Shown one piece after another: positions 11,063-64,000 of a stretch of 64,000 bases of DNA (within the stretch, counting starts at the first letter, position 1; each line of letters opens with the position of its first letter). Source of the DNA: Candidatus Methylomirabilota bacterium (lineage in GTDB: Bacteria > Methylomirabilota > Methylomirabilia > Rokubacteriales > CSP1-6); assembly GCA_035281625.1 (NCBI GenBank), contig DATEDO010000219.1, positions 3,952-67,951 of the forward strand, read 5' to 3'. The notes below the pieces were generated by a model that did not search any database, was not told the DNA's origin, and was given only the letters and a program-made list of their open reading frames with translations. The translations under genes and the position numbers were made by a program.

Positions 11063-11194
11063 GGCGCTTCCTCCCCAGTGAGGATCGATGGCGGTGGATG
11101 GGGCGACCGCCGAACGGGCCCGCGCGATTCGCGCGATGAAGCGGGACGTGCGGGGATCCTAGCGGACGTGAGTGGGGGCGTCAAGCCCGGCGAA

Positions 11195-11245
11195 ACCGCG
11201 ATCGCGTTGCAATCGCCGCGTGACCTGTTCCATACTACCGGCTCC
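11195..11245 (+). promoter_or_regulatory. Candidate promoter of the sugar ABC operon in the 220-bp divergent intergenic region
   Basis: The plus strand reads TTGCAA-18nt-CATACT, about 45 nt upstream of the GGGAGGAG RBS. This is weak evidence. Confidence 0.2.
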
Positions 11246-11281
11246 GCGGAGACGGCGCGCGGCGGCGCGCGGGAGGAGCCA

Positions 11282-47734: not shown

Positions 47735-47737
47735 CGG

Positions 47738-49168: not shown

Positions 49169-49194
49169 GCCCGCTCCTGCGTGATGGAATCTAT

Positions 49195-49235
49195 TGGCCG
49201 CCGTTGACAGTAAACCGCACCGAGGGCAGACGTCT
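49195..49235 (-). promoter_or_regulatory. Candidate sigma70-type promoter for the RND operon
   Basis: The minus strand reads GTTTAC-16nt-TAGATT, ending about 25 nt upstream of the MFP ATG. This is weak evidence in a high-GC genome. Confidence 0.25.
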
Positions 49236-49262
49236 ACCGGCTGGCCGAGGGTCGCATCGCGG

Positions 49263-49310
49263 GCCCGCCCCGCGCCATAGGACCTTGGTCCACCCGGCGG
49301 CGGGGCGGGC
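49263..49310. terminator. Compound GC-rich stem-loop downstream of the AAEx transporter gene
   Basis: The outer stem gcccgccccgc (49263-49273) pairs with gcggggcgggc (49300-49310). An inner perfect hairpin ggacc-tt-ggtcc sits at 49280-49291. It shares the 15-mer GGCGGGGCGGGCGGG with the 30154-30231 inverted repeat. Confidence 0.5.
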
Positions 49311-49331
49311 GGGTGGGTCTTCCGCGACGCG

Positions 49332-51014
49332 TCAGGCCAACAGGGCCACGATGACGGGCCCCCAGGCGGTGAGCAAAATGTTTCCCACGGCATAGGGCAC
49401 GGTATAGCCAAGGGCCGGCAGCTTGCTCTGGGACTCCTCCTGGACGGCCCGCAGAGCGGCGGTGATCGTCCCCGCTCCGGTACACGCGCCCAGGAGGATG
49501 AGGGGGTTCATCCGGAGCACGTATCGGCCGAAGAGAATGGCCGTGACATGGGGCAGGATGGCCACCACCAGGCCGACCAGGACCAGGCTCACGCCGGACT
49601 TCTGGAGGCCCGACACGAAGCTCGGACCGGCGCTGAGCCCCACCACGCCGATGAAGACGGTCAGGCCCACGGTGTCGAATACCCACATGGCCGGCTCGGG
49701 GATGCGCCCGAACGTGGGATGCACGGCGCGCAGCCAGCCGAAGACCAGGCCCATGATGAGGGCGCCGCCGCTGGCGGTGAGGGTGATGGGAAGCCCCCCG
49801 AGCGTGAGCGTGAGCAGGCCCACCAGGCCGCCCAGGAAGATCCCGAGGCCGACGAAGATCATGTCCGTGGTGATGGTCGGGCGGTCGGCGTATCCGACCT
49901 CGCGGGCGGCTCGCTCGACGTCGGCCTTGGCCCCGACCAGGTTCAGCACGTCACCGCGATCGACGCGGGTTGCCGCGGAGAACGGCATGGGCTGCCCCAC
50001 TCGCGTGAGCTGGCGCAGGAACACGCCGCGAGCGGCCTCCATGGTCGCCAGCTCCGCGATGCTCTTCCCGATGACGTCGCGCCTGGTCACGACGACGTCG
50101 AGCACCTCGACCGGGAAGTCGAGCAGCTCCCGGTCGTCCTCCTCCGGGCCGATCACCGTGCCGCGCGCCATCAGCGCCTCGGAGCGAGTCATCACCGCGA
50201 CCACGTCGTCCTTCTGAATGACGGTGTCGGGGCGGGCCTCGACGATGACTCCGGCATGCCGGACGCGCGAGATGAAGACGCGCACGTCCTTGGGGAAGGC
50301 CTCGATCTGGCCCACCGTCTTCCCGATCATGCGCTCGTTGGCGACGCGATAGGCGCGGACGCCGAAGTTCATGAATGCGGAGCGGACGCCGGGCTCGGGC
50401 TCCTCGGTCGCCCCGCTCTGGCTCTGGTACTTCCTCGCCTCTTCCTTCAAGTTCACGCGCATCAACCGGGGGCCGATGCTGGGAATGAACCAGACGATGA
50501 AGGCGGTGCCGATGAGGTAGGTGACCGCGTAGGCCACCGGGATGTTGTTGATGAGCGCGGTCCTCTGATCCTGAGGCAGATCGAGCCGGTTGATGGCATC
50601 CGCGGCCGTGCCGATGACGGTGGATTCCGTGAACGCCCCCGCGAGAAGCCCCGCGGCGGTGCCCACGTCGTAGGCGAAGAGCTTGGCCGCCGTGAACGCG
50701 GCGATCAGGCACGTGACGCAGAGCACCACGGTGAGCGCGAGCTGGGGCAGCGCGTCCTTTTTCAACCCGCGAAAGAATTGCGGCCCGACCTTGTAGCCGG
50801 TGGTGAAGAGGAAGAGATCGAAGAAGACGTTCTTCACGATGGCGGGGACTTTGATATCGAGCTGACCGATGATGACTCCCGCCAGCAGCGTGCCCACCAC
50901 GGTGCCCAGGCTGAACGAGCCGATCCTGATCCGTCCGATGGCGAAGCCCACCGCGAGGGTGAGGAAGATCGCCAGCTCCGGGTGCTCACGCAATGCGCTG
51001 ACGAAGTAATGCAT
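49332..51014 (-). CDS. AAEx-family transporter (AspT/YidE/YbjL type, two central TrkA-C domains)
   Basis: 560 aa. The N-terminus ([40 protein letters not shown]) and the duplicated 5+5 TM halves flanking a cytoplasmic regulatory domain match the AAEx family. Confidence 0.8.
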   Translation of the reverse strand: MHYFVSALREHPELAIFLTLAVGFAIGRIRIGSFSLGTVVGTLLAGVIIGQLDIKVPAIVKNVFFDLFLFTTGYKVGPQFFRGLKKDALPQLALTVVLCVTCLIAAFTAAKLFAYDVGTAAGLLAGAFTESTVIGTAADAINRLDLPQDQRTALINNIPVAYAVTYLIGTAFIVWFIPSIGPRLMRVNLKEEARKYQSQSGATEEPEPGVRSAFMNFGVRAYRVANERMIGKTVGQIEAFPKDVRVFISRVRHAGVIVEARPDTVIQKDDVVAVMTRSEALMARGTVIGPEEDDRELLDFPVEVLDVVVTRRDVIGKSIAELATMEAARGVFLRQLTRVGQPMPFSAATRVDRGDVLNLVGAKADVERAAREVGYADRPTITTDMIFVGLGIFLGGLVGLLTLTLGGLPITLTASGGALIMGLVFGWLRAVHPTFGRIPEPAMWVFDTVGLTVFIGVVGLSAGPSFVSGLQKSGVSLVLVGLVVAILPHVTAILFGRYVLRMNPLILLGACTGAGTITAALRAVQEESQSKLPALGYTVPYAVGNILLTAWGPVIVALLA

Positions 51015-51036: not shown

Positions 51037-52566
51037 TTAGCTCTTGGGCTTGGTCTCCGCCCCGCCCCCGGGAGCCGGGGGCGGAACGCCGAAGTAGCGC
51101 CCCGCGGCCGGATGGACCGGGATCGTGATGCCCCGTAGCCCGGTCCGCTTGGAGATCTTGGCGCCCTGGGCCGCGCCCCGGGAGACGTAGTCGGTGTTCT
51201 CGAATACCAGCTTCAGGACCACCGCGGCCTCGCCTTCCGGGACGTCGGCATGCGTCACGAGCAGGGCGGTCGCCGCGACCGTCGTCACGCCGTCCTGTTG
51301 TCCCGGGTAGGTGTTGGCTGGGACCATGAGGCGGACGAGGCCAGGGCTCTGGCTGACCAGGCCCGCCACCGTGTCCACGTCCAGCGAGAGCAGGCGGATC
51401 GGATGCCGGGTCGCCAGGCGCTGTATCTCACGGGCGGGCGCGCCTACCGTCGCGAAGAAAGCGTCCAGGCGGCCACCTCTGAGCCGGGCCGGGGCGTCCT
51501 CCAGCCCGTCCTCGCGGACCTCGGCGAGGTCCTTCGGGGCGAGCCCATGCGCGGCGAGCACGGCGAGGGCGTCGGCGCGGGTACCTGAGTTCAGCGGGCC
51601 CAGGGCGACGCGCTTGCCGCGGAGATCGGCGACGGTCCGTATCGGGGACTTGGCGGAGACGACGATGTGCAGGGGCTCGGGAAACAGGCTTCCCAGGGCC
51701 CGGAGAGAGGTCACGGCGCCGCCCTGGGCGAACGCGCCCTCGCCGGCATACGCCATCGCGGCCACGTCGGACTGGACGAGGGCGTAGTCGGCCTCCTTGC
51801 TGGCGATGAGCCGGACGTTCTCCAGGCTGCCGACGGTCTCGACGTTGCGGACCTTCACCGTCGCGTTGATCTGCTGCGCGCGGGCGACCACGGCCTCCGA
51901 GATTGGATGGTATTCGCCTTCCTCGGGCCCGCTGGCGAAGGTGTAGACGTGCTTGCGCCGCGCCCGGCGCGCCGTGATGGCCTTGAGCGCGTGATCCAGC
52001 TCCTCGGAGATCATCTGATCTTCCTGGTTCGGGACGCCCGGCGGGGGAATGTCGACCATGGCGGCGAGCCGATCGATGAGCTGCTTCGCCTTCGAGGCGG
52101 GAGCGGCGTCGCCGGGCGCCGACGGCCGTCTTACCCCGGCGGCGGCGCTCTCCACGCCTTGCCAGCGGTTCCCCACCCACTCGTAAGTGGAGCTCCCGTA
52201 CACCCGGATCTCCTCGCCCGGCTTGGTCTCGCCGGGCTTCACCCCGAAGATGCCCTTCTCGGTCGCGCCGAGCACCTGGGCCAGGGTCCCCGGGCTCAGG
52301 CCTTCCCAGTCACCGAAGTCGTAGGTCTGGGCGAGCTTCAGGGTGGCGTTGTAGTAGACGGCGAGCCGGCTCGCCCCGCTTTCCGCGTCGGGCAGGGGAG
52401 AGCTGCCCTGGCGCCGGAGCGCGACCAGCTCGAAGAGCCCCGGCTTGAAGCGCTGATCGAGCTTCGTCTTCACCTCGGTGCGCAGCGCGGTGGCGTCCGG
52501 CCCGCGCGAACAGCCCAGCGCCGCGACGGCAAGCGCCAGGAACAAGGCCAGCGCGAGACGCTTCAT
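51037..52566 (-). CDS. TAXI-family TRAP-type solute-binding lipoprotein with ~190-aa N-terminal extension (orphan: no DctQM nearby)
   Basis: 509 aa. The signal and lipobox are LALAVAALGCS. The C-terminal ~310 aa carry the TAXI signature, including IPVHPAAGRYF. There is no adjacent TRAP membrane component. Confidence 0.75.
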   Translation of the reverse strand: MKRLALALFLALAVAALGCSRGPDATALRTEVKTKLDQRFKPGLFELVALRRQGSSPLPDAESGASRLAVYYNATLKLAQTYDFGDWEGLSPGTLAQVLGATEKGIFGVKPGETKPGEEIRVYGSSTYEWVGNRWQGVESAAAGVRRPSAPGDAAPASKAKQLIDRLAAMVDIPPPGVPNQEDQMISEELDHALKAITARRARRKHVYTFASGPEEGEYHPISEAVVARAQQINATVKVRNVETVGSLENVRLIASKEADYALVQSDVAAMAYAGEGAFAQGGAVTSLRALGSLFPEPLHIVVSAKSPIRTVADLRGKRVALGPLNSGTRADALAVLAAHGLAPKDLAEVREDGLEDAPARLRGGRLDAFFATVGAPAREIQRLATRHPIRLLSLDVDTVAGLVSQSPGLVRLMVPANTYPGQQDGVTTVAATALLVTHADVPEGEAAVVLKLVFENTDYVSRGAAQGAKISKRTGLRGITIPVHPAAGRYFGVPPPAPGGGAETKPKS

Positions 52567-52569
52567 GGA

Positions 52570-53781
52570 TCAGAACCCGAACATCGGCAGGGCCAGGTAG
52601 GCCTGGATGATGAACGCGTTGGTGATGTCGATGAAGAAGGCGCCCACCATGGGCACGATGAGGAAGGCGAGTGGGGAGGGCCCGTGGCGGTCGGTCACCG
52701 ACTTCATGATGGCGAGCGCGCAGGCGGTGGACGACATGCCGAAGCCGATCTGCCCCGCGGACATGATGGCGGCGTCGTAGGTTTGTCCCATGACGCGGAA
52801 CGTCACCTGCGTGGCGTAGAGCGTGATGATGATGGTCTGAGTGGCCAGGATCACCAGCAGCGGGCCCGCCAGGTTCACCAGGTCGAGCAATCGCATGGTC
52901 ATGAGCGCCATGACCAGGAACATGGACAGCGCGACGTTGCCCACCACGTCCACGGTGGCGTCGCTCATCTGGAACAGACCGGTCGCCGTCGAGGCATTCC
53001 GGATCACGACCCCGAGCAGGAGCGAGAACACGAAGTCCGGCAGGATGAATCCGGTGCCCGCGACCAGGCCCACGAGCAGCTTCCCGCCGGCCAGGCAGAG
53101 CAGGATGACGAAGAGCGTGGTGAGCAAGGACTGCGAGGTGACGGAATCCGCCTCGGCGGCGTCGGGCGTCCCGTCGGCGTCCGCGTCGGCGCCGGGCGCC
53201 GGTCCCTGCAGCTTGTGCCGCCTGAGGAGGTATTCGGCCACGGGACCGCCCAGCACGGCGCCGATGACCAGGCCCGCGGTGGCGCACGCCATGGTGAGCT
53301 CCATGATCCCCTGGAGGTTCATGGTTTCGCCGAGCCGGCCCGCATAGGCCGCGCCCGTCCCGTGCCCGCCGACCAGGGTGATGGATCCTCCGAGGAGGCC
53401 CACCACGGGATGCATGTCCATGGCGCGCGCCGCGCTGATCCCGATGAGGTTCTGCACCACGATGAGCACCACGCTGATCCCGAGGAATATGGCCAGCCGC
53501 GGGCCACCCTTGACCAGCATCCGCGCGTCGGCGGCGAGGCCGACCGTCGTGAAGAACATGAGGAGCAGGACGTCGCGCAGCCCCAGGTTGAAGCCCAGCC
53601 GCACGTGCAGGACGCCGTCCACCACGGCGAGGAGTAGGGCCATCAGGCCGCCGCCGACGACGGGCGCGGGGATGTTCAACCGCGACAGCAGGGGCACGTG
53701 GGCCACGAGGAGGCGGCCCAGGAACAGCACCGCGATGGAGACCAGCAGCGTGGAGATGAGATCGAAGTCTATCGTCCGCAC
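52570..53781 (-). CDS. gltS: Sodium/glutamate symporter
   Basis: 403 aa, with the GltS family 10-TM pattern and conserved segments (GISVVLIVVQNLIGI ... GFGMSSTACALAIMKSVT). Confidence 0.8.
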   Translation of the reverse strand: MRTIDFDLISTLLVSIAVLFLGRLLVAHVPLLSRLNIPAPVVGGGLMALLLAVVDGVLHVRLGFNLGLRDVLLLMFFTTVGLAADARMLVKGGPRLAIFLGISVVLIVVQNLIGISAARAMDMHPVVGLLGGSITLVGGHGTGAAYAGRLGETMNLQGIMELTMACATAGLVIGAVLGGPVAEYLLRRHKLQGPAPGADADADGTPDAAEADSVTSQSLLTTLFVILLCLAGGKLLVGLVAGTGFILPDFVFSLLLGVVIRNASTATGLFQMSDATVDVVGNVALSMFLVMALMTMRLLDLVNLAGPLLVILATQTIIITLYATQVTFRVMGQTYDAAIMSAGQIGFGMSSTACALAIMKSVTDRHGPSPLAFLIVPMVGAFFIDITNAFIIQAYLALPMFGF

Positions 53782-53869: not shown

Positions 53870-55480
53870 CTAGGCCTTCGGGGCCTTCTTCGAGGCCTCG
53901 TAGGCGTCGCGGTAGCCGCGGGCGATGGCGCGCACGCCGCGTCCGATGTCGTCGTACACGTCGTCGCCGAGATTGGCGAGGGAGACGCGCAGGGACCAGT
54001 CCGGCGCCTCGAAGCCGCCGCCGTTCAAGAGCACGATCCCGTGGGTCTCGGCGAGCCGGAACGCGAGGTCCAGGGGATGGACGTTCTTCTTGAGATAAGC
54101 GACCGCATCCTCGCCGATGTTCTTCCGGGCCCAGAACTCGAAATCGATGAGCCCGTAGTAGGCATTGAACAGCGGGTTGGGGGCGACCTCCAGGCCCAGC
54201 CCGTCGAGGAGCGCGCGGGCCCGTCGGTGCACGATCTCCATGCAGGCCTTCTGATAGCGCTTCTCCGCGTCCATCAGCTCGGACAGGGAGAACATCGTCA
54301 TCATGACCTGCTGCGGGAGCGAGAGGCCGGCCGTGTGGTTCAGGCCGACGTCGCGGCTGTCCGCCACGATGCGATCGATGAACTTGATCTTCCTCGGCTC
54401 GAGGGTGAGCGCGCCGTAGCGCTTGTCGAGCGCCTTCAGCGTGTCGCCGGTGTGCTTGGCGATCATCGTGTCGTAGATGTTGTCCTCGTGCAGCGCGATG
54501 ACGCCCAGCCGCCAGCCCGTGCAGCCGAAATACTTCGAGTAGGAGTAGACGCCGAGAGTGTTCTGCGGCAGCTCGCCCAGCAGTGACCGGAAGCCGGGCA
54601 CGAAGGTCCCGTACACGTCGTCGGTGAGGAGCATGAGGTCGGGGCGCTTGGTCTTCACCAGCGTCGCGATCTTGCCGATGGACTCCTTGCTGAGCGCCAC
54701 CCCGGTGGGATTGCCGGGATTGACGAGGAAGAAGGCCTTGACCTTCGGGTCCTCGAGCTTCTTCAGCTCCGCGTCGGTGGGCTGGAAGCGGTTCTCCTGC
54801 GGCGAGGCGATATTGACCACGTTCAGCGCGTAGTCCTCGAGGTGCGTCATCTCGAGGTACGGCGTGAAGATGGGCGTGCCGAGGGCGATGGTGTCGCCCG
54901 GCAGGAGCAGGCGATTGGCCTTGAGCGACTTGAACAGGTAGCACATCGCCGCGGTGCCGCCTTCCACCGCGTAGAGGTCGAACTTTCCGGGGGGCCGCGG
55001 ATTGCCGCACACCGCCCACTGGATGTACTCGTGCACGATGCGCTCGTTGTGCACGAGCATCCGGTCGGGCACGGGGTAGTTGTCGCCGATGATGGAGTCC
55101 ACGATCTCGTGGACGAAGGCGTCCGGCTCGAACTTGAACTCCTTCACCGCGAACGGAACCATCTTCTTGAGGAAGTCCGCGCCGAGCATGTCGGAGTGCT
55201 TCGCGAGCCAGGCGTCCAGGCGCCCCGCGATGCCCTGGGCCGCGGGCATGCCTCCGACCCCCGCGGGATGCTCCATCACGCGCCGGCTCTCGGTCAACGC
55301 GAACTGGCCCAGCAGGAAGAACGCGTCGCGCGGGTCGGTGGCGATCCAGTTCGGGTTGCCGCGGCCCGCGTTGAGGAAGGGAGTCTGCGTGGTCCTGGAC
55401 GTCTTCTTGGCGAGCTTCGCCAGCTCGTCCTTGATCTCGAACGGCCCCATCTTGTCGAACTGCGTCAGGTCGATGGCCAT
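53870..55480 (-). CDS. asdA: Aspartate 4-decarboxylase (L-aspartate beta-decarboxylase, aminotransferase fold-I)
   Basis: 536 aa from the ATG at 55478-55480, with AGGAG 7 nt upstream. It aligns along its full length with characterized AsdA: FEIKDELAKLA, LNAGRGNPNW, YAVEGGTAAMCYLF, the PLP-Lys region YSYSKYFGCTGWRLG, and RIVADSRDVGLNHTAGLSLPQQ. Confidence 0.85.
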   Translation of the reverse strand: MAIDLTQFDKMGPFEIKDELAKLAKKTSRTTQTPFLNAGRGNPNWIATDPRDAFFLLGQFALTESRRVMEHPAGVGGMPAAQGIAGRLDAWLAKHSDMLGADFLKKMVPFAVKEFKFEPDAFVHEIVDSIIGDNYPVPDRMLVHNERIVHEYIQWAVCGNPRPPGKFDLYAVEGGTAAMCYLFKSLKANRLLLPGDTIALGTPIFTPYLEMTHLEDYALNVVNIASPQENRFQPTDAELKKLEDPKVKAFFLVNPGNPTGVALSKESIGKIATLVKTKRPDLMLLTDDVYGTFVPGFRSLLGELPQNTLGVYSYSKYFGCTGWRLGVIALHEDNIYDTMIAKHTGDTLKALDKRYGALTLEPRKIKFIDRIVADSRDVGLNHTAGLSLPQQVMMTMFSLSELMDAEKRYQKACMEIVHRRARALLDGLGLEVAPNPLFNAYYGLIDFEFWARKNIGEDAVAYLKKNVHPLDLAFRLAETHGIVLLNGGGFEAPDWSLRVSLANLGDDVYDDIGRGVRAIARGYRDAYEASKKAPKA

Positions 55481-55512: not shown

Positions 55513-57207
55513 TCACGACAAGAGCATGATGAGGACCATGCCCCAGATCGTGAGCAGCGTGTTGCCGACCGCATAGGTGACGGTATAGCCCAGGGCGGGA
55601 ATCTGGCTTTGCGCCCGGTCGCAGACGAGACCGAGGGACGCCGTGGTCGTGCGCGCGCCGGACAGGATGCCGAGGAGGATGGCGTCGTGGAAGCGGAAGA
55701 TGTACTTGCCGACGAAGAGCCCGAGGATCAACGGCACGGTGGTGGCGACCGCGCCCCAGAGGAAGAGGCCGATGCCCTGGGTCTTCAACCCATCGACGAA
55801 GCCGGGGCCCGCCGAGATGCCGACGATCGCGATGAAGATGTTGAGGCCCACGGAGTTCATGAACCAGACGGTCTGGGACGGAATGCGCCCGAAGAACGGC
55901 TTGGTCGAGCGCAGCCAGCCGAAGACGAGGCCGGCGATGAGCGCGCCGCCCGCGGTCGAGAGCGTCAGGGGCACGCCCGCCACCTTGAGCACCAGCGCCC
56001 CGACCAGCGCGCCGAGCGTGACGGCGACGCCGACGAACGCCATGTCGGCCACGTCGGACGGCCGGTCGGGCACGCCGATCACCTTGGCGGCGGCGGACGT
56101 GTCCTGGGTGCGGCCGACCAGGGTGAGGATGTCCCCACGGTAGATCTTGGTATTGGGCAGGATCGGGATGGACGTCGCGACGGCGCCGCGGACGATCTTC
56201 GACAGGAACACGCTGCGCGCCACGGGCAGCGTGGCCAGCTCGGCGAGGGTCTTGCCGTCGACCTCCTTGCTCGTCACGTAGACGTCCACGCCCTCGACCG
56301 GGACGTTCAGCAGCTCGGGGTCGTCCACCTCCTGCGCGGCCTCGCCGATCACCTTCACGAGGACCTCTCGCGCCCCGGCGACGGCGACGATGTCGCCTTC
56401 GCGGATCACGGTGTCGGCCGCCGCATCCTCGATGGTCCCGTTGGTCCGGCGGATGCGCTCGACGAAGACGCGGGCATCCGGCACCATGGCTTCCGCCTCG
56501 ACGGCGCGGAGGCCGATGGCCTTGCCGCCCGGCCGTACCTTGAACGCCCGCAGCTCCCACTTGTGCCACGCCGACCCGGCGCCACCCATGGCGGCGGTGC
56601 CGCCCTGCATCCTCTCGTACTCCTTGCAGGCGGCGACGAGGTCCATGCGAACGAGGGCGGGACAGACGAGGGCGATCACGATGGCCGAGCCCACCGTACC
56701 GAACATGTAGGTCACGGCGTAGGCGATGGGCATGTTGTCGAGCAGGCCCTTCACCTGGTCGGGGGGGAGGCCGAGCCGGTTGATGGCGTCGGTGGAGAGC
56801 CCCATCGCCGCGGAGATGGTCTGGGAGCCGGAGTAGAGGCCCGCGGCATACCCCAGGTCATAACCCGCCGCCTTGGCGATGGCGACGGGAACCAGCAGGC
56901 TGAACACGCACTGAACCACGGAGAAGATCGCCTGCGGCAGGCCGTCCTTCGCCACCCCTCTGACGAACTGGGGGCCCACCCCGTAGCCCACCGCGAAGAG
57001 GAACATGAGGAAGGCGAAGGCCTTCAGCGGCTGATTGATGGTGATCCCGAGCTGGCCGATGATGACGCCGGCGAGTAGGGTCGCGGTCACCGAGCCGAGG
57101 CCGATGCCCTTGAAGGTGAACTTGCCGAAGTAGTAGCCGAGACCGATGGCGAGGAAGATCGCGATCTCGGGGTACTGACGGAATGTCGCGGCGAACCACT
57201 CAAGCAT
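55513..57207 (-). CDS. aspT: Aspartate:alanine antiporter-type AAEx transporter
   Basis: 564 aa. The AspT/YidE family N-terminus is [41 protein letters not shown]. It sits immediately upstream of asdA, and its start overlaps the decarboxylase stop by 8 nt. Confidence 0.75.
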
Positions 57208-59974
57208 GGTTCCCTCCGTTCTTCTTCCGGGCGGCGAGCACGTCCGGCTTCAGGAGCTTGAGCCCCTGTGAGGCCTGGTAGCCGTGGATCTCCTTCACGT
57301 CCAGCTTCCGCATGAACGTGATGGTCTCCCCGGTGATCACCTGGCCGGGGACCATGATGGGGAAGCCCGGGGGGTAGGGGATCACGAAGTTGGCGGACAC
57401 CATCTCGGGCCCACTCTTCAGCCGCTTGTCGATGTCCGGGCTGGCGAGCTTCACGAACTCGCAGTTGGCCTCGTCGTAGGCCATGAAGAAGGCCGGACGC
57501 ACGTGGCCCTCGTTGCTCGCGCCCTTCGGGTTGTCGCGGAACGCGTCCTGGAAGCGGCTGAAGTTCGGCAGGTCGGGCACGTCGGTCATGAGCGACTTCA
57601 CCCGCGCCGCGAAGGTGGCCTGCTCCGCGGGGCCGCCCTGAGCCAGGCGCTGCTCGATCTCGCGCGAGAGGTCGGCCAGCACCTTGATGAGAAGGGCGGC
57701 GTCGCTCCGCGTGTTGTTGATGTTGGTCTGGACGAGGATGCTGTTGCGCGAGGTCTTGTTGATCTGGATGTCGAAGCGCTCCGCCAGCATGCCCTTGAAC
57801 TGGGTGCCGTCGAAGCCGGCCGAGCCGCAGATGATGGTGAGGCGCGTGGGGTCGAGGGCGAACTCGTCTTCGTCCCAGGCTTCGATGGCCTGCCGCCAGG
57901 TGGAGTGGGGCGGCCCGTAGTCCTTGATGCCGGAGGCGCGGAACTCCGCCGGCACCATCTCCTCGGGCGTGGCCACGTGGAAGTACTTGGAGATGAGCGG
58001 GTGGGTGTTGATCTCGCGTCGGAGGCGCAGGGCGAGCTCGGTCATCTTCATCGTGAGCTCGTACCCCTCCAGCTCCATCTGGCGCCGCGCCACGTCGAGG
58101 GAGGCGATGATCTGGAGATTCGGCGAGGTGGAGGTGTGGGTGAGGAACGCCTCCTGGAACGGCCCCTCCACGTGGTGGAAGTCCTCGTCCCAGACGAGGA
58201 TCATCGAGCCCTGCCGGAGCGCGGACATCGACTTGTGGGTGGAGTGGGTCTGATAGACGCGGATGCGCGCCTTGTCCGGGTCGGGCAGGAGGTGCGTGTC
58301 GAGGAGCGAGCGGTCATTGGGATCGAGCGTCCCGTGCTTCGCGGCGAACGCCTTGTAGCGCTCGCGGTAGGCGGGGTCGCGATAGCGCGCCGTGAGCGTG
58401 GCGGCGGCGCCCATGGCGGTGCGCCGCCGATGGAAGGCGTTGAAGCGAGCGAAGCCGAACCACGCCTCGTCCCAGAGGAAGATGAGGTCCGGCTTGATGG
58501 CCAGGCATTCCTCCATCACCCGGGTGGGGTTGTACATGTGGCCGTCGAAGGTGCAGTTGGTGAGGTCCACCGCCCGCACGCGCGAAAGGGTGCCCTCGGC
58601 CTTGCAGGCGAGGAGCGCCGCCTTGATGGTCCTGAGCGGCACCGCGCCGTACATCGAGTACTGCGTCAGCGGGTAGGCCTCGACGTAGTAGGGTTGGGCA
58701 CCCGCCAGCACGAAGCCGTAGTGGTGCGACTTGTGGCAGTTGCGGTCGACGATCACGATGTCGCCGGGCCGGCACACCGCCTGCACCACGATCTTGTTCG
58801 AGGTCGAGGTGCCGTTGGTGGCGAGATACGCGCGCTTGGCGCCGAAGGCGCGGGCGGCGAGATCCTGGGCCTTCTTGATGTTGCCGGTGGGCTCGAGCAG
58901 GCTGTCGAGGCCGCCGGTGGTGGCGGAGGACTCGGCCAGGAAGAGATTGGTCCCGTAGAACTGGGCCATGTCGCGGATCCAGTTCGAGCGGAATACGGAC
59001 TTGCCGCGCGCGATGGGGAGCGCGTGGAAGGTGCCGATGGGCCGCTGCGCGTACTTCTTCAAGTTGCTGAAGTAGGGCGTCTCGAAGCGGTCGCTCACGC
59101 CGTCGAGGATGGAGAGGTGGATCTCCATCAGCTCCTCGACCTGGTGGAAGACCCGCCGGATGGGCGCCACCTCGGCGCTGCCGGCCAGGTGCTCGACGGC
59201 GCGGTCGGTGAGGAGGTAGAGGTCCAGCTCCGGACGGTAGCCCTTGATGGCTCGCGCGAGGGCGCCGGCGAGGGCGCCCGGCTCGATGCTCGCGGGGTCC
59301 ACGCGGAGGTTCCGCAGGAGGGTATCGCGCAGCGCCGGCATCTCGTGGCGGGAGCGGAACTGGAACCCGTCGTAGATCACCACGGCCTGCACATTGGTGT
59401 TGAACATGGCGCCGATCGCCGCGTCCTCGAAGCTGCCGACCTGCACGACCTCGTAGACGAAGGAGTCTTCCGGACGGCGCAGCCGGCGCAGATCGGCGCG
59501 GGACCGCTCCCAGCGGCTCGGGTCGTTGGGCGTGACGATGAGGACCTCGAAGTAGGGCTTGTGCCCGTTGCCCGGCTGTACGTCGGGGGGCAGCACGTCC
59601 GCCACCCGGCTCTCTCCTTCCTCGAGCGGGTCCCACGCCTTGGTGTCATGACGGTAGGCGCCGGTGACCAGGGCCGTCGAGATCTTGCCCACGAGCCGGG
59701 CGAACACGGCGGCGTTCCGCTCCTTGAGCGCCTCCGCCACCGTCCCCATGAGGTGGGGGCCGGGGTAGGCCCAGTAGTCCTCCAGCGCGGACAGCTCGGT
59801 GAGCAGCCGGGAGGCGTCCGGGTGCGCGGACTCCGCCGATGATCCGCGCGATACCGCCGCTTCCCACGCTCGGCCGATGGCGCCGAGCTCGCGCCAGCGG
59901 TCGATCCGCGCCTCCGCCGCCGAGAAGAAATCCTGAAAATCCTGCGCCTTGCGCTCGCCTTCCGCCTTGGCCAT
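57200..59974 (-). CDS. Orn/Lys/Arg decarboxylase family (biodegradative-type, fold-I PLP decarboxylase) with extended N-terminus
   Basis: 924 aa from the ATG at 59972-59974, with GGAGG upstream. It aligns with AdiA/CadA-type enzymes: [33 protein letters not shown], the PLP-Lys in [16 protein letters not shown], and [18 protein letters not shown]. It is about 170 aa longer at the N-terminus than AdiA. Confidence 0.85.
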
Positions 59975-60008
59975 GGCTAGATAACCTCCCCGGCTTCCCA
60001 ACACGAGA

Positions 60009-61340
60009 TCACAGAAGATCTCGCTCCCAGTTGATGATGAAGCGCACCTGATACCCGGTGGCGCGCGCGTCTTGCCGATCGAGAATCGCGCCGCGCGCCC
60101 GGAACCACAGCCCCTGCAGGAAGGCCGGCCACTTGAAGGGCGGCCGGTAGTCGACGGTGAGATCGTATTCGCCCTGGTCCGGCGCCGGCCTCCCGTTCGA
60201 CGGGTTGATGGCGTCCTTGCCCCACGCCATGTTCATGGTGGCGCTGAGCCCCTTCGTGAGCACGCTCGAGAAGTCGTAGGCCGCGCCGATCAGGAACGCC
60301 TTCTCGTTGGCGCGGTCGAAGTCCTGGTCGATCAGGGAGAGATAGGACGGAGAGCTGCCCCAGGGCTTCTGGATGTTGTTCCCCTTCGCGGTGAGGGTGA
60401 ACGCGCCGGTCAGGGTGAGATCGCCGATGACGAGCTGCGCCCGACCGCCGCCGTGCTGCGTCGCCCAGTGCCGGCCGTCGATCGTGGGACCCAGCAGGGC
60501 ATCCCCCACTCCCCGCTGATCCGTGAACTGGGCGCCGAGGCGCATCTTCATCGCCTGGTTCAGCGGGATCTCGTAGGCCACCTCGGTGTAGAAGGTGTTG
60601 ATGGTGTCGACGCCGTAGGAGTCGTTGATGTCGACCCGGAGCCCCGGGAGGGGGGTGAGGCGGACGCCGCCGAACCCGGCGCCCTCGTTGGTGTCCCGCG
60701 CCCCCGCCTGCTCGGACATGCTGATGAACTCATCCGCGTTCCGCGGCTTGATCTTCCAGAGAAAGCCGCCGAGATACTCCACCCACGCCACCTTGCCTCC
60801 CACGGTCACCCCCTGGAAGGTATTGGGCGTCATGCGGTTGTCGGCGGGGTTGATGTAGCCCTGGTTCACCTGCTGGCGGTAGCCTTTGACGATGACGTAG
60901 TCCTCGTACTTCAGCGCGCCCCAGGCCTCGCCCGGCACGTAGTAGCTTTCCTGACTGGGCTTGAGAAGGAGGGTGCCGTCGCGGTCCTCCGGCCCGTAGA
61001 GCTTCAGCGAGCCGTAGAGCGTGGCGCCCATCGCGAAGGTGTCCGCGAGCCAGCCCGACTGATACGTGATCCACCCGCCGGTGGCGAGCGCTTCGTTCTT
61101 CGAATCGTCGGTGTTGTTACGGTTGAAGTAGTAGATGCGGAAATGCACCTTGAGATCGGTGTCTTTGATGAACTTCGGCAGGGCGCTGGCCTGCAGCGCC
61201 TGCTGCAGGGGGTCGAAGAGCCGCTCGATCGGAGCCTCGTGGTGGGGTGGCGGCGGCGGCGCGTCCTCCGCGGACGCGAGGCCGGGCCACAGCGCGAGGG
61301 CCATCCCTGCCAACGCAATCACGGACCGTCTCATCGGCAA
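60009..61340 (-). CDS. OprD-family outer-membrane porin
   Basis: 443 aa. The signal peptide is MPMRRSVIALAGMALALWPGLASA. It has the OprD-like beta-barrel pattern with alternating aromatic/Gly strands and a C-terminal aromatic (…FIINWERDLL). GGGAGGG lies upstream of the ATG at 61340. Confidence 0.7.
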   Translation of the reverse strand: MPMRRSVIALAGMALALWPGLASAEDAPPPPPHHEAPIERLFDPLQQALQASALPKFIKDTDLKVHFRIYYFNRNNTDDSKNEALATGGWITYQSGWLADTFAMGATLYGSLKLYGPEDRDGTLLLKPSQESYYVPGEAWGALKYEDYVIVKGYRQQVNQGYINPADNRMTPNTFQGVTVGGKVAWVEYLGGFLWKIKPRNADEFISMSEQAGARDTNEGAGFGGVRLTPLPGLRVDINDSYGVDTINTFYTEVAYEIPLNQAMKMRLGAQFTDQRGVGDALLGPTIDGRHWATQHGGGRAQLVIGDLTLTGAFTLTAKGNNIQKPWGSSPSYLSLIDQDFDRANEKAFLIGAAYDFSSVLTKGLSATMNMAWGKDAINPSNGRPAPDQGEYDLTVDYRPPFKWPAFLQGLWFRARGAILDRQDARATGYQVRFIINWERDLL

Positions 61341-61473: not shown

Positions 61474-62658
61474 CTACAGCACGACCTGGAGGAGGCGCTG
61501 CATGAGCTCCTCCAGAGAAATCATGGTGAGGAGGAGCGGGGCCACGGGAAGGAGCGTGATCACCGCCAGCTGCACCACGGTCTGCCTGGTGAAGGGCACC
61601 ATGCTCATGCTGCGGATGACCTCGAAGCTATTGGCCAGGTCGGCCAGGGACTGGATGTCGGCGCTGCCGACCAGCGGCTCGGCCGGGGGCGTCCCGCGTA
61701 GCCACTTGGAGTCGAACTCCCGGACGTAGCGGCCGGCGAGGGTGCCGTACTCGCGCAGGCCCACGCGCCGCGCGGTGGCGAGGTGAGGCGTGAAGAAGAG
61801 CAGAGGCCCCACCACGATCAGGAGCAGGAAGAGGACCACCGCGGCCAGCTCCAGCTTGAAATCCGTCAAGACGGCGCTCTGAAAGAAGATCCGGTTGGCG
61901 AGGAAGCCCGAGAGGAGCACGCCGTGGGCGGCCAGGAGCGGTGCGAAGGCCACGGCGGTATTGGTGAGGAAGCCGAGCCCCCCGGCGCGGTCGGGATGGG
62001 TGGGCACGAGCTTCAAGCGGCACCGCGCGACCTTCGAGAGGAAGCGGATCCAGATGAAGATGCGGAAGTACCAGCGGAAGAGGAGGAATTGGAAGATCGG
62101 CACGCTCACATAGGCGAGCCACCATCCGGCGGGGGTGAGGCGGTAGCCGCCCTCGCCCGGCAGGGAATACCAGGTCGAGGCGTGCAGGATGGCGTAGTGG
62201 GGCCAGAGGAACACGATGCCCACGTACACGAAGGCGATGAGGAGCAGCTCCGCCACGATCGAGTTCCGCAGACGCAGGGCCGAGGCCACCGCCGCGTCGA
62301 AGCGCGCCCGGGACTCCTCCGCGATGAGGTCGCGCTCGAGGAATTGCCGGATCAGGTGCCGCATGCGCTGATGCACCACCAGCTCGGCGACGATGAGGAG
62401 CGGGACGGCCAGGAGCAGTCGCGTGTGCACCTCGACGTCCATGACGAACGGCACCTGCACCGCCGACCCCCACGCGCGTCCCGCCACGACCGACAGGAGG
62501 AAAGGGGGAAGCCAGGCGAAAAGCGCGATGACGACGATGCGGCGCCGCAGGTGCTCGAGCGCGTCACCGGAGAGGTGCGCGCGCCGGACGAGCTGATAGA
62601 GGGGCCCGCCCAGCACGAGCGAGAAATCGTAGGGATCCGACGCCTCCGCGGTGGTCAT
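61474..62658 (-). CDS. Hypothetical polytopic membrane protein (394 aa)
   Basis: The ATG at 62656-62658 overlaps the GH13 stop (ATGA). It has 8-10 hydrophobic helices rich in Trp, Phe and Arg. No family is recognized, and the ORF-track N-terminal 90 codons are rejected. Confidence 0.55.
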   Translation of the reverse strand: MTTAEASDPYDFSLVLGGPLYQLVRRAHLSGDALEHLRRRIVVIALFAWLPPFLLSVVAGRAWGSAVQVPFVMDVEVHTRLLLAVPLLIVAELVVHQRMRHLIRQFLERDLIAEESRARFDAAVASALRLRNSIVAELLLIAFVYVGIVFLWPHYAILHASTWYSLPGEGGYRLTPAGWWLAYVSVPIFQFLLFRWYFRIFIWIRFLSKVARCRLKLVPTHPDRAGGLGFLTNTAVAFAPLLAAHGVLLSGFLANRIFFQSAVLTDFKLELAAVVLFLLLIVVGPLLFFTPHLATARRVGLREYGTLAGRYVREFDSKWLRGTPPAEPLVGSADIQSLADLANSFEVIRSMSMVPFTRQTVVQLAVITLLPVAPLLLTMISLEELMQRLLQVVL

Positions 62659-64000
62659 CGGGCGGTCACCTCGAACACGTGGTATCCCCAGGCCGGCAGG
62701 TCCAGGTAGAGTCCGCGGGACACGAGCTCGTGGCCGTCGCGATCGTACCGGGCGGGGCCGAGGAGATCCTGGAGCCGGACGGATCGTCCGGCGAGATCGG
62801 GATACGGCAAGCGGACATAGCACTGGGCCTGATGCCCCGCGTAGTTGACGGCGGCGAGCCGCCGCTGGCCGCTCGCCCCGTCCCAGGCCGAGACGATGAA
62901 GCAGTCCCAGGTCCAGTTGCCGTCCCACGCGGGGGAGGCTTCGAGCAGGCGCCAGTCGCCTTCGCGCACGACGGGCTGGGCCAGGACGGTGAGCAGCCTC
63001 AGATAGAACTTGTGCCGGGCGTCGTCCAGGGGCTCCTGCGGGGCCCGGACGAGATGCGGCGAGATGCGCTTTCGGCGGCCCTCGAGCTGGCCCTGATGGA
63101 AGAACCGCAGTCCCGGGGACAGGAACGTGACCACCGCCGCCGCCTCGTGCATGCCGGGGGAGAAGGTGGCGGCGGCCCGTGGCTCATCGTGGTTCTCCAG
63201 GAAGCGCGCGAGCCGGGCCTGGTAGTCGAGCCCGGCGTGGAGATGCTCGCGTGCCGGACGGGCGTGCCCGTCGCGGAGGCGGTCGTAGAGCCGCTTGTCG
63301 TACGCGTAGTCGAAGCCCCGCTGGAGCATCTCCCACTCGAGATCCCAGTAGACCTCGGCCATGAAGCGGAAGCCGGGCAGCCGCTCGCGCACCCGCGCGG
63401 TGGCCTGGGGCCAGAACGAGACCGCGCGCCGCCCCCACGTCCGCTCGAACACGTCCGGCAGGACCAGCATGGCCATGTCGCAGCGCACCCCGTCGCACTG
63501 CTGGGAGATCTTCAGGAGCTCGCCGGTCATCGCCTCCGCGGTGGCGGGATTGCTGTAGTCGAGCTGCAGCGTGTCCGGCCACCCCGAGAAGTACGGGTCG
63601 CGGCCGTGGGCGAGGAGGAGCTCGCCGTGCGTCCGTTTGATCCAGACGTAGTTCTGCGGCGCGCGGGCCTGGTCCATCTCGGTCCCGGCCACGTAGTGGG
63701 CGGGATGGCCCTCGACCCAGGGATGGTCCAGGCCGGTATGGTTGGGGACGAAGTCGAGCATCAGCCGGAGGCCGCGGCCGCGGAGGCGCTCCCGCAGCCG
63801 GGCGAGCGCCCCGTCGCCGCCCAGGGCGGCGTGCACCGTGTAGCCGGTGATGGCGAATCCGGATCCTCCGATGTCCTCCTCGCGGAGGTCGGGCAGCGTG
63901 GCCTCGAACTCGTGTCGCCACTCGGGATTGCTCCGCGAGACCTGCTGGCCCGCCTCGCCCGTCTGCCACACGCTGAGCAGCCACACCCAGTCGAAGCCCA
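62655..64000 (-). CDS. Glycoside hydrolase family 13 (alpha-amylase superfamily) enzyme, 5'-truncated by window end
   Basis: The GH13 conserved regions I, II and IV are present (DFVPNH, GVRCDMA, FLENHD). The ORF is open to the window edge, and the N-terminal barrel strands are missing, so the gene continues beyond 64000. Confidence 0.75.
   Translation of the reverse strand, partial: GFDWVWLLSVWQTGEAGQQVSRSNPEWRHEFEATLPDLREEDIGGSGFAITGYTVHAALGGDGALARLRERLRGRGLRLMLDFVPNHTGLDHPWVEGHPAHYVAGTEMDQARAPQNYVWIKRTHGELLLAHGRDPYFSGWPDTLQLDYSNPATAEAMTGELLKISQQCDGVRCDMAMLVLPDVFERTWGRRAVSFWPQATARVRERLPGFRFMAEVYWDLEWEMLQRGFDYAYDKRLYDRLRDGHARPAREHLHAGLDYQARLARFLENHDEPRAAATFSPGMHEAAAVVTFLSPGLRFFHQGQLEGRRKRISPHLVRAPQEPLDDARHKFYLRLLTVLAQPVVREGDWRLLEASPAWDGNWTWDCFIVSAWDGASGQRRLAAVNYAGHQAQCYVRLPYPDLAGRSVRLQDLLGPARYDRDGHELVSRGLYLDLPAWGYHVFEVTAR

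Follow-up and report, generated by a model that had tools for sequence, protein, structure and literature searches.

A long-form decarboxylase of the Rv2531c family in a conserved porin and AAEx gene array, with a probable acidic amino acid substrate

The window, that is, the whole 64,000-nucleotide stretch of DNA analyzed here, carries on its minus strand a seven-gene array in which a large PLP-dependent decarboxylase lies between an outer-membrane porin and an AAEx-family transporter. By its sequence, the decarboxylase belongs to the long-form, four-domain family of Rv2531c of Mycobacterium tuberculosis. Its substrate is probably an acidic rather than a basic amino acid, and its most probable reaction is the conversion of L-glutamate to GABA and CO2; a basic amino acid is very unlikely as the substrate. 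Neither the enzyme family nor its N-terminal domain is new, both having entered the literature in 2025-26. What is apparently undescribed is the module, a conserved arrangement of porin, decarboxylase and AAEx genes in which this known family is found. We infer the substrate, the exchange reactions and their physiological role, and the reading that we prefer, with reasonable though not high confidence, is a composite module that decarboxylates acidic amino acids and exchanges them for the products.

Gene array and start sites

The genes and features of the array are as follows.

60009..61340, minus strand: OprD/Occ-family outer-membrane porin (Pfam PF03573 (OprD), 85 bits against a cut-off of 25)
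57200..59974, minus strand: long-form four-domain PLP-dependent decarboxylase of the Rv2531c family, 924 aa (Pfam OKR_DC_1, 240 bits)
59600..59974, minus strand: extra N-terminal helical domain of the decarboxylase, about residues 1-125 (alignments and AF2 helices)
57200..57207, minus strand: 8-nt overlap of the decarboxylase stop and the AAEx start, ATGCTTGA (sequence reading)
55513..57207, minus strand: AAEx transporter, AspT1 clade, of the asdA-linked aspartate:alanine antiporter type (TIGR03802, 645 bits against a cut-off of 547)
53870..55480, minus strand: aspartate 4-decarboxylase AsdA, Asp to Ala + CO2 (TIGR03801, 753 bits against 435; NF006755, 761 against 321)
52570..53781, minus strand: sodium/glutamate symporter GltS (TIGR00210, 415 bits against a cut-off of 311)
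51037..52566, minus strand: TAXI-family solute-binding lipoprotein with an N-terminal extension of about 200 aa (TIGR02122, 254 bits)
49332..51014, minus strand: second AAEx transporter, AspT2 clade (TIGR03802, 676 bits)

The presence and order of the genes named in the original prediction (porin, decarboxylase, AAEx) were borne out, all on the minus strand. That prediction had left out the continuation of the array on the same strand with asdA, gltS, the TAXI gene and the second AAEx gene. Spacing is tight throughout: from the porin to the second AAEx gene the gaps are 34, -8, 32, 88, 3 and 22 nt, the third of these separating the AspT stop from the start of asdA. The same gene order, with the same 8-nt overlap, was found in a contig of 93% identity (L085), and the order was found again in another of 86-96% identity (L086). 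An assembly artefact was ruled out because these two independent assemblies share the gene order. An exact-sequence look-up of the decarboxylase protein in public assemblies gave no match. Scans of 49-63 kb found no promoter-like sites, and terminator-like sites did not exceed chance expectation. These scans were uninformative, so spacing is the one basis for the operon structure, from which we infer co-transcription of the array genes.

The overlap proposed in the original prediction is real. The decarboxylase ends with TGA at 57202..57200, and the AAEx gene starts with ATG at 57207..57205, preceded 5-6 nt upstream by GGAGGG. Mis-annotation of the AAEx start as the source of the overlap was ruled out, because the TIGR03802 match begins at AAEx residue 3 and the alignment with orthologues at residue 1. 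On the other side, the decarboxylase had been placed 5 nt downstream of the porin, which did not stand: the 924-aa protein starts at ATG 59974, 34 nt past the porin stop; it is preceded at 10 nt by GGAGG, and in relatives this start is also the one called. The only start 4 nt past the porin stop is GTG 60004, which would give a 934-aa form.

The porin likely starts at ATG 61334 (alternatively at 61340) and has an N-terminal signal peptide, and its Pfam OprD match spans nearly the whole profile. Compared with OprD, OpdC and other Occ structures of Pseudomonas, it gave weak and roughly equal hits, with E values of 4e-8 to 2e-3. The TAXI protein has a visible lipobox (LG-C), and a Thermus protein deposited as 'putative GluR0 ligand binding core' (1US4/1US5) is among its best relatives of known structure. 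The transport partners in the window, namely AAEx, GltS and a glutamate-type TAXI protein, are of families for anionic or acidic substrates.

Family and active site of the decarboxylase

In phmmer searches, the decarboxylase matched the Rv2531c structures (PDB 9N0N/9N0O) with 755 bits over residues 22-914, against at most 175 bits for every LdcA, LdcI, LdcC, AdiA and ODC structure. It is 44.4% identical to Rv2531c overall, rising to 55.5% within the catalytic domain, and 24-27% identical to AdiA, CadA, LdcC, SpeF and SpeC of Escherichia coli. The tree proposed as a check in the original prediction gave the same placement: by neighbor joining (NJ), Rv2531c falls into a single clade with the window protein and 14 relatives taken from other loci, apart from all five E. 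coli enzymes. The NCBIfam scores are far under the cut-offs for LdcC (190 against 968 bits), AdiA (172 against 1167), CadA (168 against 1056), SpeC (134 against 794) and SpeF (130 against 1310), so that the protein is an orthologue of none of these, and membership of the biosynthetic SpeC/SpeA type was ruled out by the scores together with the tree. It should be mentioned that many of the homologues listed carry the JGI label 'arginine decarboxylase', which the present results correct. Cultured carriers of the family include Lysobacter and Stenotrophomonas. The long form is not mentioned in the LdcA phylogeny paper or in the paper on ancestral ODC/LDC.

An N-terminal extension, as originally claimed, is present, although it is shorter than the approximately 170 aa given: it amounts to about 125-140 aa, consisting of residues 2-124 and a linker. 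In the alignment, nothing in the five E. coli enzymes corresponds to residues 2-124, and the remaining extra length is made up of insertions at residues 214-230, 525-571 and 779-787. The extra helical domain precedes a receiver-like wing domain. The N-terminal domain of Rv2531c is a four-helix bundle (PMC12329521). The two N-terminal domains, that of the window protein and that of Rv2531c, are 26% identical, including a YW-YPG motif. An AF2 model of the 924-aa protein, built on an alignment of 37 sequences of 78-94% identity, was poor overall (mean pLDDT 50.9, pTM 0.38), and its usable part is limited to four N-terminal helices at residues 13-42, 50-65, 72-84 and 88-104 (pLDDT 65-87). Searched against 1.84 billion representatives, the first 290 aa gave 841 hits, mostly fragments; this search shows no more than that the region is a recurrent feature of the family.

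Rv2531c decarboxylates L-glutamate and does not act on Lys, Orn or Arg; these three and Glu are the substrates named for its Mg2+-supplemented NMR assay (PMC13506015). Its deletion abolishes GABA synthesis, and GABA alone changed among the amino acid products (PMC13506015). The enzyme needs Mg2+ and shows cooperative kinetics; puzzling features are a lag in activity and a K0.5 for glutamate as high as 509 mM. Its role is in an internal GABA shunt (PMC13506015). All PLP-binding and catalytic residues of Rv2531c are conserved in the window decarboxylase: K570, H405, K406, D493, W496, S567, T606 and S607 correspond to K581, H414, K415, D502, W505, S578, T616 and S617. In Rv2531c, R576, R718 and N731 are the proposed binders of the side-chain carboxylate. 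R576 corresponds to R587 of the window protein and is Ser in all five E. coli enzymes. R718 is conservatively changed to K727, in place of which E, D, E, A (SpeF) and D are found in E. coli. N731 is kept as N739; at this position the E. coli set reads T, E, E, E and E. The 16 long-form sequences are in accord at these pocket positions. Counted against the reading as a glutamate decarboxylase were the identity of only 44% to Rv2531c, which falls to 26% in the two N-terminal domains, and the Lys of the window protein in place of R718.

Conserved neighborhood and exchangers

We compared 76 genome loci seeded on the decarboxylase, from Methylomirabilota, Binatia, Acidobacteriota, Verrucomicrobiota, Myxococcota, Xanthomonadales and others. 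An AAEx gene lay within 500 nt of the decarboxylase gene in 60 of the 76 and somewhere in the locus in 71. A porin gene was present in 57, of OprD type in 35 and of DcaP type in 22. The synteny thereby gives strong support to the coupling of decarboxylase and AAEx, the linkage of this decarboxylase family to AAEx and porin genes being strongly conserved across phyla. Like the window, the relatives have neighbors of families for anionic or acidic substrates, such as DcaP-type porins and DASS transporters. The gltS-TAXI pair lies directly 3' of the decarboxylase gene in three loci (L007, L039, L046). In 30 loci, which lack asdA and gltS, the decarboxylase has as its only neighbors an own-clade AAEx gene and, in most of them, a porin gene. 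In a second set, 34 metagenome loci seeded on asdA and with enough flanking sequence, the decarboxylase gene was directly upstream of aspT-asdA in 30; AspT-AsdA pairs were found without the decarboxylase in L115, L132, L135 and L160.

The slot beside the decarboxylase holds either an AAEx-3 gene or an AspT+AsdA cassette, never both, and the window has the asdA-type AspT; comparison of locus L002 with L003 reveals a precise exchange in this slot. The AAEx-3 clade is always adjacent to the decarboxylase and never with asdA, and its members score about 400 bits against TIGR03802, under the cut-off of 547. The core AspT residues T130, S132, Y167, L431 and F434 are kept in all AAEx clades.

The first AAEx protein of the window keeps the AspT substrate-site residues T130, S132, Y163, Y167, L455, F458 and T520, the last at the position of AspT T496; S498 is replaced by Thr and D495 by Arg. 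The AspT substrate-site list (T130, S132, Y167, T496) is from PMC12462496. All 24 classified AspT1-clade members in related loci adjoin asdA. Most simply, this protein would be the Asp:Ala exchanger of AsdA. The caveat that the AAEx gene may serve only asdA, voiced with the original prediction, is thus partly sustained, since the AspT1 clade is always beside asdA, and partly countered, since the triad of decarboxylase, AspT and AsdA is itself conserved. Because the adjacent AAEx is of asdA type and AspT-AsdA pairs occur without the decarboxylase, the 8-nt overlap may reflect operon packing rather than shared function.

The second AAEx protein is 46% identical to the first and has a different pocket signature (HP1 T-E-S, HP2 G-T-I-T). 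Its clade, AspT2, is also found beside the decarboxylase in loci without asdA (L003, L004, L009, L012). It is therefore a candidate exchanger for the decarboxylase, which may be served either by this protein (49332..51014) or by the same AspT. In the searchable literature, no AAEx member exchanging Glu for GABA is known. No APC antiporter was found in the whole 64-kb window: tblastn with AdiC, CadB and PotE gave a best E of 0.22. Searches of the literature on AAEx with GABA, glutamate decarboxylase or porin, and on Rv2531c, turned up no account of the synteny, and the Rv2531c function paper (PMC13506015) contains no neighborhood or antiporter analysis.

Proposed function and comparison with known systems

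In the composite module that we prefer, the porin would pass glutamate and aspartate across the outer membrane, and the AAEx exchangers would take them up into the cytoplasm, along with GltS/TAXI for glutamate. Each of the two reactions, Glu to GABA by the decarboxylase and Asp to Ala by AsdA, would use one cytoplasmic proton, and the exchangers would release the less negatively charged products. As a proton is used per decarboxylation and less negative products are exported, the cycle would raise the cytoplasmic pH and make membrane potential, as in AspT/AsdA and GadB/GadC. Against this explanation, substrate and role in the clade of the window may differ from those of Rv2531c, because Rv2531c has a K0.5 of 509 mM, works in an internal GABA shunt and has no such transporter neighbors.

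The original prediction suggested that a Lys, Arg or Orn decarboxylase receives its substrate through OprD and that AAEx, instead of an APC antiporter, exchanges it for the polyamine. The OKR_DC_1 domain, the best NCBIfam hits (LdcC, AdiA and CadA), the OprD-family porin upstream and the lack of an APC antiporter in the window agree with this model. We nevertheless consider it hardly tenable: even the highest of those scores is 190 against 968, the protein groups with an enzyme inactive on Lys, Orn and Arg (PMC13506015), and the pocket has Arg, Lys and Asn where the basic amino acid enzymes have Ser, an acidic residue (Ala in SpeF) and Glu or Thr. Moreover, the neighboring transporters are all from families for anionic substrates. 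A porin of the OprD family is no specific sign of basic amino acids; the hits of this one to several Occ porins are alike in their weakness, and a DcaP-type porin replaces OprD in 22 loci. Family membership, pocket residues and transport partners all speak against a basic substrate.

Another explanation is a purely metabolic glutamate decarboxylase, like that of M. tuberculosis, that feeds a GABA shunt with glutamate from GltS/TAXI, AAEx serving AsdA or other functions and the adjacency reflecting co-regulated breakdown of acidic amino acids and not an antiport of precursor and product. The sole characterized homologue does work in such a shunt, the array includes the uptake-type gltS-TAXI pair, and the adjacent AAEx is of asdA type. 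Yet neither gabT nor gabD was recognized among the genes identified from about 40 kb to 64 kb, the 30 loci with the own-clade AAEx as neighbor, usually with a porin, lack asdA and gltS, and the conservation of a porin in 57 of the 76 loci suggests that an external substrate or product is moved at high flux; we regard this explanation as rather unlikely. The decarboxylase may instead use a different acidic substrate, for example L-aspartate, giving beta-alanine, with all AAEx partners being aspartate exchangers. This would explain why an AspT+AsdA cassette can stand in the AAEx-3 slot, and it agrees with the mutual exclusion of the two beside the decarboxylase, the L002/L003 swap, the core residues common to all AAEx clades, and the poor glutamate binding of Rv2531c, for which the named NMR substrates were Lys, Orn, Arg and Glu. 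However, deletion of Rv2531c altered only GABA among the amino acid products, gltS (a glutamate-specific symporter family) and the glutamate-type TAXI gene are recurrent neighbors, and the pocket is that of Rv2531c save for the R-to-K change, which makes an aspartate decarboxylase distinctly improbable.

Returning to the composite module, we put forward a wider proposal tentatively, and would lean slightly against it as a whole. In diderm soil bacteria from many phyla, a porin of OprD or DcaP type, the long-form decarboxylase and AAEx may form an envelope-spanning system, in which AAEx-3 would be a new Glu:GABA (or acidic amino acid:amine product) antiporter and the AspT+AsdA cassette could be interchanged with it in the slot; the decarboxylations in the window would then be one translationally coupled unit for acid resistance or proton-motive force. 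The Rv2531c family was recognized as a hidden glutamate decarboxylase only in 2025-26, and the M. tuberculosis gene is without informative neighbors. The synteny ties this family to AAEx, porins and AspT/AsdA across hundreds of genomes from the environment as well as in Xanthomonadales in culture. It gives independent genomic support for an acidic substrate, predicts a function for the AAEx-3 clade, and suggests a second role in precursor/product exchange for pH or energy homeostasis. If true, decarboxylation/antiport modules would reach beyond APC-family partners.

With AdiA/AdiC, CadA/CadB and SpeF/PotE, the window shares a homologous catalytic fold, the wing domain and a decarboxylase gene adjoining an exchanger gene; it differs in the extra N-terminal domain, the reversed pocket charge, the lack of an APC antiporter and the predicted acidic substrate. 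GadB/GadC of E. coli, Listeria and lactic acid bacteria resembles it in the proposed conversion of Glu to GABA, the consumption of a proton and the exchange of product for substrate. However, GadB is of a different, structurally unrelated PLP decarboxylase group (PMC13506015), the window enzyme having the Orn/Lys/Arg-decarboxylase fold, and GadC is an APC-family antiporter, whereas the candidate exchangers here are of the AAEx family. The only operon type with outer-membrane porin, decarboxylase and exchanger that we found described in the literature is chlamydial AaxABC, with the porin AaxA, the arginine decarboxylase AaxB and the Arg:agmatine antiporter AaxC (PMC2720952); none of its three proteins is homologous to those of the window, AaxB being a pyruvoyl enzyme, AaxC not an AAEx protein and the substrate arginine.

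Rv2531c (PDB 9N0O/9N0N/9N0P), the 'cloaked' L-glutamate decarboxylase, is built of the same four domains, among them the extra N-terminal helical one, and its PLP ligands, R576, T606 and N731 are kept in the window protein, R718 being replaced by Lys. The window protein, in contrast, comes from a diderm, Methylomirabilota-like soil bacterium and is encoded in an operon-like array with porin and AAEx genes; the papers on Rv2531c consulted here report no transporter or genomic context. The AspT-AsdA system of Tetragenococcus halophilus and proteobacteria has a complete copy in the window, where both genes pass their equivalog cut-offs, and its logic of electrogenic precursor/product exchange with proton-consuming decarboxylation would be shared here. 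In the window, however, this pair lies inside a larger unit, together with an unrelated second decarboxylase upstream, a porin and a second AAEx transporter.

Gene array around the decarboxylase

Seven minus-strand genes lie between 49.3 and 61.3 kb of the window, whose G+C content is ~70%:

61340 or 61334..60009, minus strand, OprD-family porin (Pfam OprD, 85 bits)
59974..57200, minus strand, large decarboxylase (OKR_DC_1; stop TGA at 57202..57200)
57207..55513, minus strand, first AAEx transporter (TIGR03802, 645 bits; cut-off 547)
55480..53870, minus strand, aspartate 4-decarboxylase AsdA (TIGR03801, 753 bits)
53781..52570, minus strand, Na+/glutamate symporter GltS
52566..51037, minus strand, TAXI solute-binding lipoprotein
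51014..49332, minus strand, second AAEx transporter (TIGR03802, 676 bits)

From the porin to the second AAEx gene, the gaps are 34, -8, 32, 88, 3, and 22 nt. A matching arrangement with the identical 8-nt overlap was found in a Methylomirabilota MAG contig (L085, 93% identity), and the arrangement was also as in the window in a soil metagenome contig (L086, 86-96% identity). Because these two independent assemblies agree, the array is not an assembly artefact. In L085, asdA and gltS are separated by two inserted opposite-strand genes (16104..18694), for PPK2 and for a SulP/STAS transporter, which shows that the seven-gene array can come apart at this junction, where the window has the 88-nt gap.

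ATG 59974 is the most likely start of the decarboxylase (924 aa); GGAGG lies 10 nt 5' of this codon, and a start at the matching place is called in relatives. The original prediction placed the gene ~5 nt past the porin, which holds only with the alternative start GTG 60004 (934 aa) and becomes 34 nt with ATG 59974. The predicted 8-nt overlap between the decarboxylase stop and the AAEx ATG at 57207 (ATGCTTGA) was confirmed exactly in the sequence. This AAEx start is supported because the profile alignment begins at residue 3 and orthologues align from residue 1.

Other features of the region recur in related loci from other genomes or metagenomes (L numbers). The gltS and TAXI genes form a conserved adjacent pair (window 51037..53781, minus strand, 3-nt gap; also L005, L007, L037, L039, L044, and L046). 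A lipobox and a ~200-aa N-terminal extension mark the TAXI protein. None of the genes identified in the array was recognised as a TRAP membrane subunit, and it would be unusual for a binding protein to be paired with a symporter of the GltS type. Just 5' of the porin, 61474..62928 (minus strand) encodes a multi-pass membrane protein (398 aa as called in L085) with no match in Pfam or NCBIfam. Its homologues lie beside the porin or decarboxylase in L005, L012, L030, L054, L058, L086, L111, L112, and L124, and it may be an unrecognised module component. Directly after the second AAEx gene, on the same strand (~43173..49411), is a tripartite RND efflux set consisting of a membrane-fusion protein, an AcrB-like pump, and an outer-membrane factor. 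Across several phyla, the decarboxylase has RND pump genes beside it in 11 of 76 loci; for outer-membrane-factor genes the number is as high as 25.

A long-form decarboxylase related to Rv2531c

The decarboxylase scored far below all curated LdcC, AdiA, CadA, SpeC, and SpeF models (top score 190 bits; cut-off 968). Its top match among solved structures was 9N0O/9N0N/9N0P, the "probable amino acid decarboxylase" Rv2531c of M. tuberculosis (755 bits, residues 22-914); the next structures (LdcA, LdcI, LdcC, AdiA, and ODCs) reached at most 175 bits and matched in the core domain only. A cryo-EM study described Rv2531c as a new extended form. According to a 2026 study using knockout metabolomics, isotope tracing, and NMR assays, it converts L-glutamate to GABA and is inactive on Lys, Orn, and Arg, with K406, T606, and R576, together with R718 and N731, proposed as glutamate-recognition residues (PMC13506015).

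We aligned the window protein with Rv2531c (residues 25-902, rebuilt from the printed alignment), relatives from other loci (14 in the tree), and AdiA, CadA, LdcC, SpeF, and SpeC of E. coli MG1655. Identity to Rv2531c was 44.4% overall (N-terminal domain 26%, wing 26%, catalytic 55.5%, C-terminal 43%), compared with 24-27% to the five E. coli enzymes. In the neighbor-joining tree, Rv2531c grouped with the window protein and the 14 relatives in a single clade that excluded the E. coli enzymes. All PLP ligands of Rv2531c are kept. At the discriminating pocket positions, the long-form proteins have R587, K727 (R in Rv2531c), and N739, whereas the E. coli enzymes have S, E/D/E/A/D, and T/E/E/E/E, respectively; the pocket is thus basic where most basic-amino-acid enzymes are acidic. 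Every feature of the Rv2531c type open to a sequence test was present. Judged by sequence, the decarboxylase is a new member of this known, recently characterised family. Membership of the AdiA/CadA/SpeF type was rejected, as none of its three defining features that we tested was found.

The N-terminal extension, predicted at ~170 aa, proved shorter (~125-140 aa), with residues 2-124 lacking an E. coli counterpart; further insertions relative to the E. coli enzymes are at 214-230, 525-571, and 779-787. Overall quality of the AF2 model was poor (pLDDT 50.9); the four helices it predicted within residues 13-104 (pLDDT 65-87) fit the four-helix bundle of Rv2531c (PMC12329521).

Acinetobacter is among the carriers of the Rv2531c family (PMC13506015), and Acinetobacter baylyi ADP1 produces GABA without an annotated glutamate decarboxylase (PMC4213383). 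The missing activity of this strain may be a long-form enzyme.

Distribution and the adjoining exchangers

The decarboxylase family has many members and unusually strong conservation, with hundreds of 911-925-aa proteins at 78-94% identity in soil metagenomes and >586 loci in species-representative genomes. Carriers include Methylomirabilota, Binatia, Acidobacteriota, Verrucomicrobiota, Myxococcota, Nitrospiraceae, and cultured Xanthomonadales (Lysobacter, Arenimonas, Stenotrophomonas, and Pseudoxanthomonas). Among the cultured orthologues are those of Lysobacter niastensis (L013, with AAEx-3 at 10805-12505) and Arenimonas daejeonensis (L017). Between phyla, the ~920-aa protein is strikingly conserved (62-85% identity; loci L001-L165).

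The best 80 of the >586 loci were searched with the window proteins and all ORFs were clustered; 76 had usable flanks. An AAEx gene was within 500 nt of the decarboxylase in 60/76 loci and anywhere in the locus in 71/76. A porin was present in 57 (OprD-type 35, DcaP-type 22), asdA in 32, and gltS in seven, six of which also had TAXI. The DcaP-type porins (Pfam DcaP, 85 bits) were mostly directly upstream of the decarboxylase.

The OprD-type is exchanged for a DcaP-like porin bearing an N-terminal coiled coil in 22 loci, from Acidobacteriota and some other groups (L015, L016, L050, L052, L053, L055, L059, and L061-L080; e.g. L070, 6422-7906). The outer-membrane part of the module has apparently undergone non-orthologous replacement there. 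In Xanthomonadales (L017, L019, L027-L034, and L045), genes for a PAS histidine kinase and a LuxR-type response regulator adjoin the decarboxylase-AAEx-porin unit, and an MscS-like channel gene is likewise recurrent there; these are candidate module regulators in cultured hosts.

The AAEx proteins fell into four clades, named here, with six further AspT-like sequences, at 45-55% identity, and a single outlier left unassigned:

AspT1: 24 classified members, all adjoining asdA, including the overlapping AAEx of the window; HP1 T-x-S with x = I; HP2 R-T-T-T
AspT2: 10 members, including the second AAEx of the window, also in loci without asdA; HP1 x = E; HP2 G-T-I-T
AAEx-3: 30 members, always directly beside the decarboxylase and never with asdA; HP1 x = M; HP2 R-S-H-S
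AAEx-4: 20 members; HP1 x = E; HP2 Q-T-F/M-T

AspT core residues T130, S132, Y167, L431, and F434 (PMC12462496) are kept in all four, and the tips of hairpins HP1 and HP2 carry a near-invariant signature specific to each clade, a pattern that functionally differentiated paralogues would show. AAEx-3 reached only ~400 bits on the AspT model, under the cut-off of 547.

By orthology, the overlapping AAEx is an asdA-type AspT, and AspT-AsdA pairs occur without the decarboxylase (L115, L132, L135, and L160). The original prediction named an AAEx gene serving only asdA as grounds for its own rejection, and these observations go part of the way towards that. Beside the decarboxylase, the slot is taken by AAEx-3 in 30 loci and by AspT1 with asdA in 23, never by both; two related loci, L002 (DUF2950-DEC-AspT1-asdA-AspT2-porin) and L003 (DUF2950-DEC-AAEx3-AspT2-porin), differ solely by this swap. 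In an independent search that set out from asdA in metagenome contigs, the decarboxylase was directly upstream of aspT1-asdA in 30/34 loci with enough flank. This either/or slot and the asdA-seeded loci argue against chance juxtaposition. Identity to the window's proteins in the asdA-seeded loci is typically 75-84% for AspT1 and AsdA and, in most, only 60-65% for the decarboxylase, whereas decarboxylases of AAEx-3-type loci are nearer (70-79%). Because these levels differ, the decarboxylase and the AspT1-AsdA cassette seem not to share all of their history, and the higher AspT1/AsdA similarity suggests cassette exchange or horizontal transfer.

A putative module for acidic amino acids

The array is best read as a composite module that handles acidic amino acids, in which substrate, transport, and physiology are all inferred. 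Glutamate and aspartate would enter via the porin and cross the inner membrane via the AAEx exchangers, with GltS/TAXI for glutamate. The long-form enzyme would convert Glu to GABA and AsdA would convert Asp to Ala, each reaction consuming one proton, and the products would exit by exchange, raising internal pH and membrane potential. Both effects are established for AspT/AsdA, whose Asp1-:Ala0 exchange is electrogenic (PMC9508256), and for Gad systems. In this genome, the exchanger for the decarboxylase could be the second AAEx (AspT2), or AspT1 in a dual role.

GABA formed by the decarboxylase might instead feed a purely metabolic GABA shunt, which we consider unlikely. Export fits better than internal use because no gabT/gabD was recognised among the genes identified from ~40 kb to 64 kb, no APC antiporter is in the 64-kb window, the closest solved relatives of the TAXI protein include the Thermus GluR0-like protein 1US4/1US5, and relatives' loci contain DcaP-type porins and DASS transporters. 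It is less probable still that the enzyme acts on another acidic substrate, e.g. Asp to beta-alanine. The original prediction of a new basic amino-acid module with an unknown substrate falls away in view of the Rv2531c affiliation, the basic pocket, and the sub-cut-off scores, and we regard that model as very improbable.

In the searchable literature, where silence is no proof of absence, we found no description of porin-decarboxylase-AAEx synteny and no Glu:GABA exchanger in the AAEx family. The linkage of a hidden glutamate decarboxylase family to AAEx exchangers and porins is robust, testable, and apparently unreported. The AspT-AsdA pair of the window is an ordinary representative of its family. 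The proposed acidic amino-acid module would resemble GadBC, AspT-AsdA, and the chlamydial porin-decarboxylase-antiporter operon AaxABC (PMC2720952) in its working logic, but differs from them in combining another decarboxylase fold with AAEx exchangers.
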